The translations under genes and the position numbers were made by a program. Positions 1 to 3,585 of a stretch of DNA of 4,821 nucleotides are shown here, in pieces. How positions within the stretch are numbered: position 1 is the stretch's first letter; each line of letters begins with the position of its first letter. The stretch lies in IMG/VR virus record IMGVR_UViG_2531839474_000008. One strand, given 5' to 3'. Origin of the DNA: a virus. Taxonomy: Duplodnaviria; Heunggongvirae; Uroviricota; Caudoviricetes. Under the pieces are notes generated by a model. The model made no database searches. It was not told the origin of the DNA and worked only from the letters and a program-made list of their open reading frames with translations.

Positions 1-1829
1 CTGAGATCCAGCTGCCAGCGGGAAATACTGATGCGCAGCGCCGCCAGCGCATAAACGAAGCAGTCGAGTGCCTCATTGCGTCGCTTTTTGCTGTCCCACA
101 GTATTTTTTTCCTGCCATCCACCCATTTTTCGACCTGCTCTTCAGCAGTCAGCTGCTGCGCTTCGGTCAGATCAAAAATATCCGGGTTATTCGGGAAGTG
201 AACGGCACCGGGAAGCGGTTCATCCCCTTCCGGCGTCAGTGTGAAGCGGTTATAAATCTGCTCTTTCGCGGTATCCGTACCGATTTCGGTAAGGTAAACC
301 CCGTTTTTGTTTCGCTTACGTGGCATGCTGGCCACCGGCTTTCCGTAGACGGATGCCCCTTTAATGAGGATCACCCGGAACAGCCCATGTTTTTTCGAGC
401 GTTCATACACAATGGTCGGGTCAATCCCGCCAGTATCCCAGCAGATACGGGATACCGACATTTCTGCACCATTCCGGCGGGTATAGGTTTTATTGATGGC
501 CTCATCCACACGCAGCAGCGTCTGTTCATCATCGTGGCGACCCATAATAATCTGCCGGTCAATCAGCCAGCTTTCCTCACCCGGCCCCCATCCCCATACA
601 CGCATTTCGTAGCGCTCCAGCTGGGAGTCGATACCGGCGGTCAGGTAAGCCACACGATCAGGAACGGGCGCTGAATAATACTCTTTCCGCTCTGCCATCA
701 CTTCAGCATCCGGACGTTCGCCAATTTTCGCCTCCCACGTCTCACCGAGCGTGGTGTTCACAAAGGTTTTACGTTTTCCCGTATCCCCTTTCGTCTTCAT
801 CCAGTCTTTGACAATCTGCACCCAGGTGGTGAACGGGCTGTACGCCGTCCAGATGTGAAAGGTCACACTGTCAGGCGGCTCAATCTCTTCACCGGATGAC
901 GAAAACCAGAGAATGCCATCACGGGTCCAGATCCCGGTCTTTTCGCAGATATAACGGGCATCAGTAAAGTCCAGCTCCTGCTGACGGATGACGCAGGCAT
1001 TATGCTCACAGAGATAAAACACGCTGGAGGGGTCATCCGGCGTCCATTTGAGGCCAAACGGCGTCTCTTTATCGCCAAATTTAAGGTACTGCTCCTCCCC
1101 GCAGTGCGGGCAGGCAACATGAAAACGCATAAAATGCGGGGATTCACTGGCTGCACGCTCAATCTGACAGGTGCCTCTCACTTTGGGCGTGGAGCCACGG
1201 ATGGACTTTGGCCAGACCGAGCCTTCAATACGCTTATCGCCCAGGAACGTCGGAGAGCCTTCCTGTTCAATATCCTCATCAAAGGCAGCAAGTTCATCAT
1301 AACCCGCCACATCCACCGACTTTTCACGGTAGTTTTTTGCCGCTTTACCGCCCAGGCACCAGAAGCCACGACCATTGGTGAAACGCTTCATGGTGAGCGT
1401 GTTATCCCGGTGCTTTTTGCCATACCACGGAGCCAGCGCCAGCAGCGACGGAATATCACGGATGGTTGGCTCAACGTGAGTTTTCATGAAGTTCTCGGCA
1501 TCACCATCCGTCGGCAACCAGATAAGTGTGTTGCGTTGCTTATGCTCTATGAAGTAGGCATAAACACCCAGCAGCATTTTGGAATAACCGACACGGGCAG
1601 ACTTCACCACATTCACCTCACGGATGTAGTCGCTGCCCATCGCATTCATGATGGCCCGCTGAAAGGGCAGTGTTTCCCAGCGCCCTTCCTGGTATGCGGA
1701 TTCTTTCGGGAGATAGTAATTAGCATCCGCCCATTCAACGGCAGTCTGTGGCTCCGGCCTGAACAGTGAGCGAAGCCCGGCGCGGACAAAATGCCGCAGC
1801 CTGTTAACCTGACTGTTCGATATATTCAC
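1..1829 (-). CDS. A: Terminase large subunit gpA, partial; about 609 codons present, C-terminal end lies beyond the window
   Basis: Hand translation of the minus strand from the GTG at 1829..1827 gives MNISNSQVNRLRHFVRAGLRSLFRPEPQTAVEWADANYYLPKESAYQEGRWETLPFQRAIMNAMGSDYIREVNVVKSARVGYSK... and stays open to position 1, ending ...EALDCFVYALAALRISISRWQLDLS. It is collinear with lambda gpA as recalled, with a few substitutions, and includes the P-loop-like KSARVGYSK. The start overlaps the Nu1 3' end by 26 nt as in lambda. It is absent from the ORF track only because there is no stop inside the window. Confidence 0.95.
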   Translation of the reverse strand, partial: MNISNSQVNRLRHFVRAGLRSLFRPEPQTAVEWADANYYLPKESAYQEGRWETLPFQRAIMNAMGSDYIREVNVVKSARVGYSKMLLGVYAYFIEHKQRNTLIWLPTDGDAENFMKTHVEPTIRDIPSLLALAPWYGKKHRDNTLTMKRFTNGRGFWCLGGKAAKNYREKSVDVAGYDELAAFDEDIEQEGSPTFLGDKRIEGSVWPKSIRGSTPKVRGTCQIERAASESPHFMRFHVACPHCGEEQYLKFGDKETPFGLKWTPDDPSSVFYLCEHNACVIRQQELDFTDARYICEKTGIWTRDGILWFSSSGEEIEPPDSVTFHIWTAYSPFTTWVQIVKDWMKTKGDTGKRKTFVNTTLGETWEAKIGERPDAEVMAERKEYYSAPVPDRVAYLTAGIDSQLERYEMRVWGWGPGEESWLIDRQIIMGRHDDEQTLLRVDEAINKTYTRRNGAEMSVSRICWDTGGIDPTIVYERSKKHGLFRVILIKGASVYGKPVASMPRKRNKNGVYLTEIGTDTAKEQIYNRFTLTPEGDEPLPGAVHFPNNPDIFDLTEAQQLTAEEQVEKWVDGRKKILWDSKKRRNEALDCFVYALAALRISISRWQLDL

Positions 1830-2349
1830 TCAGCAACCCCGGTATCAGTTCATCCAGCGCGGCTGCTTTGTTCATGGCTTTGATGATATCCCGTTTCAGG
1901 AAATCAACATGTCGGTTTTCCAGTTCCGGAAAACGCCGCTGCACCGACAGGGGGATCCCGTCGAGAATACTGGCAATTTCACCTGCGATCCGCGACAGCA
2001 CGAAAGTACAGAATGCGGTTTCCACCACTTCAGCGGAGTCTCTGGCATTTTTCAGCTCCTGTGCGTCGGCCTGCGCACGCGTAAGTCGATGGCGTTCGTA
2101 CTCAATAGTCCCTGGCTGGAGATCTGTCTCGCTGGCCTGCCGCAGTTCTTCAACCTCCCGGCGCAGCTTTTCGTTCTCAATTTCAGCATCCCTTTCGGCA
2201 TACCATTTTATGACGGCGGCAGAGTCATAAAGCACCTCATTACCCTTCCCACCGCCTCGCAGAACGGGCATTCCCTGCTCCTGCCAGTTCTGAATGGTAC
2301 GGATACTCGCGCCGAAAATGTCAGCCAGCTGCTTTTTGTTGACTTCCAT
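1804..2349 (-). CDS. nu1: Terminase small subunit gpNu1 (cos-binding, winged helix-turn-helix N-terminus)
   Basis: The 181-aa ORF MEVNKKQLADIFGASIRTIQNWQEQGMPVLRGGGKGNEVLYDSAAVIKWYAERDAEIENEKL... ends ...LSEYIEQSG, essentially the lambda Nu1 sequence as recalled. ATG start at 2349..2347 and TAA stop at 1806..1804. It sits immediately downstream of cosB. Confidence 0.95.
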   Translation of the reverse strand: MEVNKKQLADIFGASIRTIQNWQEQGMPVLRGGGKGNEVLYDSAAVIKWYAERDAEIENEKLRREVEELRQASETDLQPGTIEYERHRLTRAQADAQELKNARDSAEVVETAFCTFVLSRIAGEIASILDGIPLSVQRRFPELENRHVDFLKRDIIKAMNKAAALDELIPGLLSEYIEQSG

Positions 2350-2373
2350 TGTTCATTCCACGGACAAAAACAG

Positions 2374-2488
2374 AGAAAGGAAACGACAGAGGCCAAAAAG
2401 CCCGTTTTCAGCACCTGTCGTTTCCTTTCTTTTCAGGGGGTGTTTTAAATAAAAACATTAAGTTACGAAGAAGAAGAACGGAAACGCC
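2374..2488. repeat. cosB: cosB gpNu1-binding elements: R1 (2374..2389) and R2 (2415..2430) as a perfect 16-bp inverted repeat, R3 at about 2473..2488, and an AT-rich putative IHF bend region between R3 and R2
   Basis: The plus strand at 2374..2389 is agaaaggaaacgacag and its exact reverse complement ctgtcgtttcctttct sits at 2415..2430. A third copy of the CGTTTCC core, gaagaacggaaacgcc, lies at 2473..2488. This arrangement matches lambda R1/R2/R3. The IHF site is not pinned to exact bases. Confidence 0.75.
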
Positions 2489-2526
2489 TTAAACCGGAAA
2501 ATTTTCATAAATAGCGAAAACCCGCG

Positions 2527-2538
2527 AGGTCGCCGCCC
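2527..2538 (-). other. cosN: cosN 12-nt cohesive-end sequence (GGGCGGCGACCT on the minus strand), flanked by the terminase nick sites
   Basis: The plus strand at 2527..2538 is aggtcgccgccc, the reverse complement of the lambda cohesive end GGGCGGCGACCT. It is flanked on the right by cgtaacctgtcgg, the reverse complement of the lambda right-end terminus. Confidence 0.8.
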
Positions 2539-2737
2539 CGTAACCTGTCGGATCGCCGGAAAGGACCCGCAAAATGATAATAATTATCATCTACATGTCA
2601 CAACGTGCATCTACGCCATCAAACCACGTCAAATAATCAATTATGACGCAGGTATCGTATTAATTGATCTGCGTCAACTTAACGTAAAAACAACTTCAGA
2701 CAATACAAATCAGCGACACTGAATACGGGGCAACCTC

Positions 2738-2932
2738 ATGTCAACGAAGAACAGAACCCGCAGAACAACAACCCGCAACATCCGCTTTCCTAACCAAATG
2801 ATTGAACAAATTAACATCGCTCTTGAGCAAAAAGGGTCCGGGAATTTCTCAGCCTGGGTCATTGAAGCCTGCCGTCGGAGACTAACGTCAGAAAAGAGAG
2901 CATATACATCAATCCAAAGTGATGATGAATAA
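2738..2932 (+). CDS. Small basic hypothetical protein, 64 aa, with an Arc/MetJ/CopG-like ribbon-helix-helix pattern; possibly YlcI/YnfO (DUF3950) family
   Basis: ATG at 2738 with a GGGG Shine-Dalgarno-like run about 9 nt upstream (acgGGGcaacctcATG) and a TAA stop. The protein MSTKNRTRRTTTRNIRFPNQMIEQINIALEQKGSGNFSAWVIEACRRRLTSEKRAYTSIQSDDE has a basic N-terminal arm, a beta-strand-like NIRF followed by P, a helix (NQMIEQINIALEQKG), a GSG turn and a second helix (NFSAWVIEACRRRL), parallel to the Arc FNLRWP...G.S... pattern. It uses three AGA codons and is more AT-rich than the terminase genes, as expected for a moron. The family name is tentative and from memory. Confidence 0.7.
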   Translation: MSTKNRTRRTTTRNIRFPNQMIEQINIALEQKGSGNFSAWVIEACRRRLTSEKRAYTSIQSDDE

Positions 2933-3199
2933 ACATCCCGGTTTCTTCCACCATCGCACCGGAAAAGCGACTATGAGGGTAACCCTGCGTCTGTCAGCAC
3001 AGTAAAACCCGGTGTGCATCGTTTTTGATTATTCCCGCACACTCACGCAGAAGGAATTCCCCGTCGGGCTACGGCCATGGTTAATGCGGGAATACGGCGA
3101 CGATACAGCGCAGCTAAAAGGGTAATGGACAGAAAGAGCGGTTTATTTCATTCCACAGGATTCTGAGTGCCCCCCTCCTCCAATAGGCTGAGCATCCAC

Positions 3200-3291
3200 C
3201 TATATAGTTTTAATTTTCATCAATCCATTTAACTATCGTTTAATTGTTGTCACATAGGATTCTGCCGTTTTTAACAATGCAGGATAATAAG
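3200..3291 (+). promoter_or_regulatory. Putative bor promoter and ribosome-binding region
   Basis: AT-rich sequence directly upstream of bor. A strong Shine-Dalgarno AGGA sits 7-8 nt before the ATG (gcAGGAtaataagATG). There is a candidate -35-like TTGTCA at 3247..3252 with weak -10-like ttaaca/taacaa 17-19 nt downstream. Lambda bor is known to be expressed in lysogens from its own promoter, but the exact hexamers here are not convincing. Confidence 0.3.
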
Positions 3292-3585
3292 ATGAAAAAA
3301 ATGTTGTTTTCTGCCGCTCTGGCAATGCTTATTACAGGATGTGCTCAACAGACGTTTACTGTTGGAAACAAACCGACAGCAGTAACACCAAAGGAAACCA
3401 TCACCCATCACTTCTTCGTTTCGGGAATTGGACAGGAGAAAACTGTTGATGCAGCCAAAATTTGTGGCGGCGCAGAAAATGTTGTTAAAACAGAAACCCA
3501 GCAAACATTCGTAAATGGATTGCTCGGTTTTATTACTTTAGGCATTTATACTCCGCTGGAAGCGCGTGTGTATTGCTCACAATAA
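3292..3585 (+). CDS. bor: Bor outer-membrane lipoprotein (serum-resistance lysogenic-conversion protein), 97 aa
   Basis: MKKMLFSAALAMLITGCAQQTFTVGNKPTAVTPKETITHHFFVSGIGQEKTVDAAKICGGAENVVKTETQQTFVNGLLGFITLGIYTPLEARVYCSQ, with a lipoprotein signal peptide and LITGC lipobox. It is near-identical to lambda Bor as recalled, and lies on the strand opposite the late operon, directly after Rz, as in lambda. The ATG at 3292 with its AGGA Shine-Dalgarno is preferred over the TTG at 3244 used by the ORF track. Confidence 0.93.
   Translation: MKKMLFSAALAMLITGCAQQTFTVGNKPTAVTPKETITHHFFVSGIGQEKTVDAAKICGGAENVVKTETQQTFVNGLLGFITLGIYTPLEARVYCSQ

Follow-up and report, generated by a model that had tools for sequence, protein, structure and literature searches.

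The ylcI gene at a lambda-type right end

The 4,821-nucleotide stretch of DNA analyzed here (the window), from the Caudoviricetes record IMGVR_UViG_2531839474_000008, is the lysis-to-packaging junction of a lambda-type prophage, shown on the strand opposite the late operon, and our subject is a small open reading frame (ORF) within it that encodes the YlcI/YnfO protein of family DUF3950 (Table 1). A truncated large terminase gene precedes Nu1, and the Rz/Rz1, lysozyme, and holin genes all lie on the minus strand; ylcI runs opposite to Nu1, Rz, lysozyme, and holin and in the same direction as bor. In locus L001 the equivalents of the Nu1-type and bor/iss genes are annotated nohD and iss, respectively. 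The 12-mer listed as cosN is the cohesive end of lambda; the mature lambda-type genome end falls between 2538 and 2539, and the alignment of the window with lambda stops at 2539, which corresponds to lambda 48502. Window 2539-2949 is 96% identical to lambda 48502-48092, and this alignment to the lambda right end therefore places the ORF start 200 bp inside a lambda-type right end. The window lacks a segment of ~1.1 kb with lambdap78/lambdap79 (ybcV/ybcW) that is present in lambda and in DLP12 of Escherichia coli K-12.

Table 1. Coordinates of the features in the window, and predicted layout of the YlcI protein
Feature	Position	Strand	Basis or remark
ylcI-type coding sequence (CDS), DUF3950, YlcI/YnfO family	2738..2932	+	ATG start, 64 amino acids (aa)
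Nu1-type small terminase gene, opening the packaging/head operon and divergent from ylcI	1804..2349	-	Pfam Phage_Nu1, E=3.9e-101
bor/iss lipoprotein gene, next same-strand gene after ylcI	3292..3585	+	Pfam Lambda_Bor, E=1e-30
cosN, 12-nt cohesive-end sequence aggtcgccgccc (reverse complement of GGGCGGCGACCT)	2527..2538		Read from sequence
Cos cut to start codon, 199 bp (lambda 48502-48304)	2539..2737	+	Homology to lambda right end
Imperfect hairpin (inverted repeat), ~100 nt, between ylcI and bor	3012..3111		BLAST, alignment
YlcI, basic arm	residues 1-12		Predicted layout
YlcI, beta-strand RNIRF	residues 13-17		Predicted layout
YlcI, helix A	residues 19-32		Predicted layout
YlcI, turn GSGN	between helix A and helix B		Predicted layout
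YlcI, helix B	residues 37-60		Predicted layout

The first-pass annotation of this DNA had called the same 64-aa ORF with an exactly matching sequence, had set it between cos and bor, had noted its orientation against the late operon, and had described it as AT-rich with AGA codons, all of which is borne out by the present analysis: the G+C content is 44% for the ORF and for positions 2350-3300 compared with 54% for 1-2349, and AGA accounts for four of the nine arginine codons. Set at the lysis/packaging junction, encoded on the opposite strand, and deviating in G+C, ylcI has the position and composition of a moron. Its assignment to DUF3950, also proposed then, rests on Pfam PF13132 (72.8 bits, E=2e-20, cut-off 25) and on NCBIfam NF041551 YlcI_YnfO_N (37.6 bits, cut-off 30), and the ORF matches PHROG 949 as well, where the function is listed as unknown. 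The Pfam model has 30 columns and covers residues 21-49 only, with the conserved IRFP strand outside it.

In K-12 the gene is named ylcI in DLP12 (b4589) and ynfO in Qin, and the window DNA at 2350-3300 is matched in 5035 of 5426 complete E. coli genomes, where it is annotated ylcI and stands beside iss/bor, at a median of two and a maximum of 15 places per genome. Over the first 47 codons the window and K-12 ylcI differ by a single synonymous change, and the K-12 gene likewise lies between cos/nohD and bor. Lambda itself carries a copy at 48113-48304 on the minus strand whose product is 97% identical in amino acid sequence to the window protein, but which is left unannotated in NC_001416, where the final CDS stops at 47944, and in many further lambda records; because it is unannotated in the lambda reference, the ORF fell outside a CRISPR interference (CRISPRi) essentiality screen of annotated lambda genes. 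The lambda "orf-64" was considered as a candidate for YlcI and rejected, being lambdap73, a different gene located upstream of S. The gene is thus already named and extremely common, and therefore not a new entity; its description as an orphan and as a unique horizontally acquired oddity gives way to that of a gene annotated as ylcI/ynfO in thousands of genomes, among the most widespread of lambdoid genes and part of lambda itself. A search of the literature found no functional study of ylcI, ynfO, or DUF3950. What is new here is the fold assignment and the satellite operators presented below, both of them modest leads, together with the unannotated membership in lambda and the setting aside of an antitoxin reading.

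Family membership has to be read with some care in database records, where lambda DNA accounts for ~35 of the 80 "species" hits (L091-L121, L126, L127, L130, and L136; P0001-P0120), in unrelated taxa that include Streptomyces, Cohnella, Algoriphagus, Pseudomonas, and a Brevibacillus "plasmid"; the Arcanobacterium hippocoleae "plasmid unnamed1" (CP136411.1, 3,566 bp) is lambda DNA too. These contigs are about 3.5 kb or 48.5 kb long, and four tested contigs of ~3.5 kb are 99.8-100% identical to lambda 45042-48488, while a fifth, of 2.6 kb, matches the lambda right end at 98.9% identity, which fits sequencing-control DNA assembled as genome contigs. The effect on the family is hundreds of frameshifted "YlcI" proteins and odd hosts, such as "YlcI/YnfO [Staphylococcus aureus]", and control DNA probably explains the mentions of ylcI/ynfO in Arcanobacterium and Metarhizium papers. 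An exhaustive search of 1.8 billion cluster representatives yielded a family of only 143 clusters. Divergent members in Enterobacterales are 33-60% identical, and the genuine ones have in common the motif IRF(P)...NFSAWV-x-[ED]-AC, which is present in the window protein. Across 46 sequences R16, F37, S38, and V41 are invariant, and I15, F17, I25, N36, W40, A44, and C45 are at least 90% conserved.

In comparisons between phage contexts whose flanks are mosaic, synonymous and non-synonymous codon differences stand at 19:4 and 12:5, a bias that indicates strong purifying selection on the YlcI protein, and judged by these comparisons the ORF is a real gene, more than a chance reading frame. The suggestion that the gene might be active in the lysogen agrees with transcripts recorded in uninduced cultures: RNA-seq of K-12 lists ybcW-ylcI as a convergent excludon (PMC12288877), and an RNA-seq table for O157:H7 includes a 228-nt DUF3950 gene transcript (PMC7709258). 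Low-frequency ylcI "polymorphisms" at K-12 580302 and 580437 appear in resequencing variant tables (PMC4330922 and PMC12844343); rather than real mutations, these could be due to reads of the ynfO paralog or of lambda control DNA that cross-map.

Predicted fold of YlcI

The first-pass annotation had likened the protein to the ribbon-helix-helix (RHH) repressors of the Arc/CopG type, and this has held up as the best available hypothesis from structure prediction and profile comparison, though not as a match to any Pfam RHH model at threshold. The AlphaFold2 monomer, computed from a 21-sequence alignment with a predicted local distance difference test (pLDDT) score of 68, has residues 1-18 extended and helices at 19-32 and 37-60, and in this model the chain looks like an RHH subunit without its partner. 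When the model was compared with known structures by Foldseek, the ranking was led by the RHH class, with StnY/CopG, NikR, HicB, Arc, and ParD, and no hit was significant. A search of PDB sequences with the family profile aligned the CopG-family protein 9kkd in register (E=0.61); the same database searched with the single YlcI protein gave uL16 matches only, which are spurious. In an hhalign comparison with 21 Arc-family sequences, RNIRFPNQMIEQINIALEQKG was aligned with QFNLRWPKEVLDLVRKVAEENG (P=7.5e-4, probability 25%), a register that places RNIRFP and helix A of YlcI on QFNLRWP and helix A of Arc. Weak PHROG matches were to HicB-like and Arc-like families, the latter at E=0.21, whereas a Pfam scan of 21 members at E-values up to 10 gave no recurrent RHH family and a single RHH_6 match (E=0.092, in one of the 21). 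In the family alignments the conserved NFS opens helix B, which matches the phosphate-binding turn of RHH proteins; such a turn at the start of helix B is a hallmark of the fold. The RHH is most likely the fold of YlcI, being the best supported of those considered, and it is not proven.

Gene contexts and operator-like repeats in satellite relatives

The gene occurs in phages of two unrelated packaging systems. In Stx-type phages, which have HNH/TerS/TerL packaging genes (TerS and TerL being the small and large terminase subunits), it is likewise flanked by lysis genes on one side and packaging genes on the other and likewise encoded on the opposite strand, 42 bp separating its start from that of HNH. 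Homology between the window and Stx-type DNA begins exactly at the ATG and continues through the downstream block, and therefore the DNA upstream of the Stx-type gene is unrelated to that of the window; YnfO of Qin has the lambda-type cos-proximal upstream region, so that positions 2539-2737 are common to the YlcI and YnfO contexts. Of 39 divergent species-level loci in Enterobacterales, 18 read P4-type integrase, AlpA, opposite-strand DUF3950, (DUF4222 and others), and D5_N primase, which by gene order is the layout of a satellite of the phage-inducible chromosomal island (PICI) type; outside Escherichia, roughly half of the members are thus borne by such satellites. In four further loci the gene sits beside an integrase in a different type of island without alpA, and the remaining loci include chromosomal ones. 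A DUF3950 member of the KTVTKNIRFSY type lies between IpgD/SopB-family and Peptidase_C69 (PipD-like) genes in Salmonella enterica subsp. diarizonae and arizonae (L133 and L135), an arrangement that resembles Salmonella pathogenicity island 5 (sopB, orfX, pipD).

These contexts bear on two rival readings. In the first, YlcI is an orphan RHH antitoxin left over from a type II toxin-antitoxin pair, an option raised when the gene was first annotated together with the observation that no partner toxin was visible. That observation extends to ~40 phage, satellite, and chromosomal loci, none of which has a toxin partner or a conserved same-strand neighbor, and the lack of a conserved same-strand partner argues against a toxin-antitoxin pair. 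The tail after helix B is moreover short and variable and is not a conserved toxin-binding segment, and the PADLOC defense models returned nothing for the window protein. The context largely excludes the antitoxin option, to which we attach next to no credence. The small ORF at 3012-3125 was also considered as a partner gene and rejected; it overlaps the downstream hairpin, shows no purifying selection, and is probably not coding, judging from one synonymous against six non-synonymous differences from the Stx-type copy in a hand count and from 1-nt indels in lambda. In the second reading the ORF is a passenger and what matters is antisense transcription across the junction, which might, for example, shield the terminase genes in the lysogen from read-through. 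In every mobile-element context the gene keeps its antisense orientation, divergent from a long operon and convergent with the genes upstream of it, and the excludon classification of ybcW-ylcI in K-12 is in keeping with such a role (PMC12288877), but the strong purifying selection on the protein sequence and the conservation of protein motifs across genera at 33-60% identity make it highly improbable.

An indication of function comes from the satellite loci, in which the 200-nt region upstream of the DUF3950 gene contains two to four exact GTG-N6-CAC 12-mers, compared with 0.034 in shuffled sequences, at fixed positions of approximately -99, -76, and -30 from the ATG. This region is intergenic and is common to the divergent replication operon. 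The -76 site abuts a conserved CACGTCAA, the other strand of which reads as a promoter-like TTGACG-18-TATGGT directed leftward; the spacer of this promoter-like sequence contains the -76 site, and the -99 site lies immediately beyond its -10 box. The DUF3950 gene itself is preceded by a TATAGT box, which the -30 site follows. Judged by the arrangement of these motifs, the layout is that expected of an autoregulated repressor acting on divergent promoters.

The repeats also vary together with the protein. Members with TTKG at residues 11-14 of the predicted strand have operator cores of the CA[CT]ATA type, those with xYKG have TTAAA-type cores, and those with KK-containing tetrads have TGCGCA or G/C-rich cores; the 200-bp intergenic region of L141 has GTGCATATACAC sites, and the operator predicted for xYKG is GTGTTTAAACAC. 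Over 29 loci the cores differ at 1.39 of six positions between members with the same tetrad and at 3.64 between members with different tetrads, and none of 5000 label permutations gave an association as extreme. The two types of island have the same TTKG strand and the same operator with no other neighboring protein in common. In the E. coli satellite of L003 both the strand residues and the repeats are different, the latter being TGGTACGTACCA and GTTTAACAC.

A conserved G+C-rich hairpin, GCCCGG...CCGGGC followed by TTCGCTATTT, is also present in the satellite intergenic regions (L131-L169). It occupies approximately -145 to -160 relative to the start of DUF3950, with the operator cluster on one side and the leftward operon's first gene on the other; its loop often holds a further GTG-N6-CAC match, and it may be a leader structure, a terminator, or an antitermination target. 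In L003 (8641-10881) the satellite-like island apparently sits within packaging genes that belong to an Stx-like prophage; beside its integrase are a 61-aa N-terminal fragment of TerS and two ORFs, one of 89 aa that resembles the TerS C-terminus and one of 93 aa.

A third reading takes YlcI for a packaging factor, and not a transcription factor, that acts with TerS or the cos region; it might, for example, occupy cos-adjacent DNA or bind TerS, and so modulate or block the initiation of packaging or protect the prophage cos site in lysogens. This reading draws on where the phage gene is found, which in two unrelated systems is always the beginning of the packaging module: in one it is 200 bp from cosN, with Nu1 divergent from it, and in the other 42 bp from HNH-terS-terL. 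It draws also on two natural fusions, P0251 and P0193, in which DUF3950 is joined to the N-terminal helix-turn-helix (HTH) of a Terminase_2 small terminase (45.4 and 29.1 bits, respectively; cut-off 26.1), a Rosetta-stone hint. However, the lysis/packaging junction is a general moron slot in which bor also resides, and in Stx-type phages the HNH gene separates the DUF3950 gene from the HNH-terS interval, where cos sites of the HK97 type are expected. The stand-alone satellite members lie at promoters and not at packaging genes, and the fusion genes themselves have upstream repeats typical of autoregulated repressors. On balance we consider a packaging role unlikely.

The fusions are located at L003 8001-8363 (P0251), also in L004-L006, and in P0193, with the rest of TerS missing. 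P0251, which was found in many independent samples, lies in an E. coli island with integrase, AlpA, primase, TerS, and capsid genes, beside a second, stand-alone DUF3950 gene, and four GTT[TA]AACAC repeats lie upstream of the fusion gene in L003. By eye the HTH of P0251 is closer to the TerS of the neighboring prophage than to the island's own TerS, and the fusion may be a packaging-interference or decoy protein.

Proposed role of phage-borne YlcI and comparison with known systems

We propose that YlcI is a DNA-binding RHH dimer that, by analogy with the satellite relatives, acts as a sequence-specific repressor or regulator, an assignment to which we give a probability of about 0.55. In this scheme YlcI would dimerize into an Arc/CopG-type RHH domain, the paired N-terminal strands (RNIRF, in which Arg16 is invariant) would fit into the major groove, and further contacts, with the DNA backbone, would come from the very basic arm KNRTRRTTTR; the protein would then repress or otherwise regulate transcription in a sequence-specific manner, as its satellite relatives are predicted to do at both divergent promoters. 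The phage-borne protein retains the residues expected for DNA binding, I15, R16, and F17 and N36-F37-S38. The gene is transcribed opposite the late operon and therefore can be expressed in the lysogen or early in infection, which is when its product would be made, and after induction head-on late transcription would be expected to silence it. For the phage-borne copy the most likely identity is a DNA-binding RHH regulator made from the prophage, with a target that is possibly in trans.

Several results weigh against this proposal. The literature searched holds no DNA-binding experiment on the YlcI family, no Pfam RHH model scores above threshold for the ORF, and none of the fold and profile scores (AlphaFold2 pLDDT, Foldseek, hhalign) is conventionally significant. 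The covariation of protein and operator could partly reflect co-inheritance of neighboring DNA. No GTG-N6-CAC site was found near the gene in the window, lambda, K-12, or Stx-type contexts, and no motif is common to the two upstream types of the phage clade. Positions 2539-2737 must hold the ylcI promoter in lambda-type phages, and no plus-strand sigma-70 consensus promoter was found upstream of the gene. The heptamer GACGCAG is enriched in the window (four occurrences compared with 0.53 expected), with an inverted pair at 2645-2675, but it was dropped as an operator because it is not conserved in the lambda, K-12, Qin, or Stx-type contexts.

The other repeats in this segment fared no better as operators. 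There is a perfect palindrome, ATGATAAT-A-ATTATCAT, at 2574-2590 and a set of interleaved inverted repeats at 2636-2676, which are either unconserved between contexts or absent from the Stx-type upstream DNA. The satellite-operator-like GTGCATCTACGC at 2604 was dropped as well, since the YnfO context has GTGCGTGGAGGC instead despite an identical protein N-terminus. The best sigma-70-like site in the region, GTGACA-16-TATCAT at 2574-2601 with 10 of 12 matches, is on the minus strand; it is directed along the late strand toward cos and Nu1, has its -10 box inside the palindrome, and may be due to chance. A near-perfect long hairpin lies at 2371-2433, between cosN and the Nu1 start at the position of lambda cosB, for which Rfam gave spurious sub-threshold microRNA (miRNA) matches only.

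Downstream of ylcI, the ~100-nt hairpin has copies at lambda 46865-46974, L007 4480-4580, and L003 11860-11960, travels with ylcI in Stx-type phages, and is not a canonical terminator. RNAalifold assigned it 34 pairs with one compensatory change (TATTCCCGCA/TGCGGGAATA in the window compared with TATTCCCGGA/TCCGGGAATA in lambda), single-sequence folding of the two strands gave z-scores of -0.46 and +0.33, which are not significant, and an Rfam search of the whole window returned sub-threshold miRNA noise only, with no match for this hairpin.

The family is common to lambdoid phages and to the PICI-type satellites that parasitize them, which would fit a role in cross-talk, with the phage copy repressing resident satellites in trans or the satellites sensing the phage copy, for example through heterodimers. 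The absence of a cognate operator beside the phage copy would fit a trans-acting protein, and the gene is strongly conserved amid mosaic flanks, but none of the satellites found has strand residues of the phage type (TTRN), and the E. coli satellite in L003 differs in both its strand residues and its repeats; we rate such cross-talk as quite unlikely. A broader proposal is that DUF3950 proteins are the missing repressors of AlpA-type (Gram-negative PICI-like) satellites, acting through GTG-N6-CAC at divergent promoters, and that the copies found in nearly all lambdoid phages, lambda among them, act in trans in helper-satellite manipulation or at the start of packaging; as the right end of lambda DNA enters the cell first, ylcI, 200 bp from that end, could in addition be the first gene expressible on infection. 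Taken as a whole we regard this as a long shot.

Returning to the RHH regulator, the assignment is of interest because YlcI is among the commonest prophage genes of E. coli and is part of lambda, the best-studied phage, and because the RHH prediction makes its function cheaply testable. Control of the integrase-AlpA-primase satellites has so far been described only through the activator AlpA, and Gram-negative PICIs are described as AlpA-activated (bioRxiv 10.1101/2022.09.08.507074); the satellite loci predict specific operators and a repressor for this large group in Enterobacterales, with a readable recognition code that would relate strand residues 11-14 to the operator core.

The closest comparators are YlcI of K-12 and YnfO of Qin, which are the same gene as the window ORF, the latter scoring above both curated cut-offs. 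The Arc and Mnt repressors of P22 (PF03869) are, like YlcI, small, phage-encoded, and equipped with a basic N-terminal arm, and the two groups are alike in having a strand ending in R-[FW]-P, helix A, a G-x-S/N turn, and helix B. They have no significant sequence-profile relationship (the hhalign probability being the 25% given above), and they differ in setting: Arc and Mnt are encoded in the immI region and have known operators, whereas ylcI is found at the lysis/packaging junction and lacks a recognizable operator. Unlike CopG/StnY, NikR, the PutA N-terminal domains, TacA, and HicB, YlcI is without a ligand- or toxin-binding extension and without a partner gene. The satellite-borne members, and only these, also resemble the Stl-type master repressors of the Staphylococcus aureus pathogenicity islands (SaPIs) in pointing away from the replication operon, with operator repeats lying across the two promoters. 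The Stl proteins are larger HTH proteins, and the likeness would be one of function. Rpp of E. coli PICIs, a winged HTH with a coiled coil that resembles Nu1 (PMC6739421), was considered as a relative of DUF3950 and rejected on account of its different fold. It is comparable with the fusions only, both being satellite proteins that combine a TerS-like DNA-binding domain with a dimerization module, which in the fusions would take the form of an RHH-like domain joined to an HTH of the Terminase_2 type.
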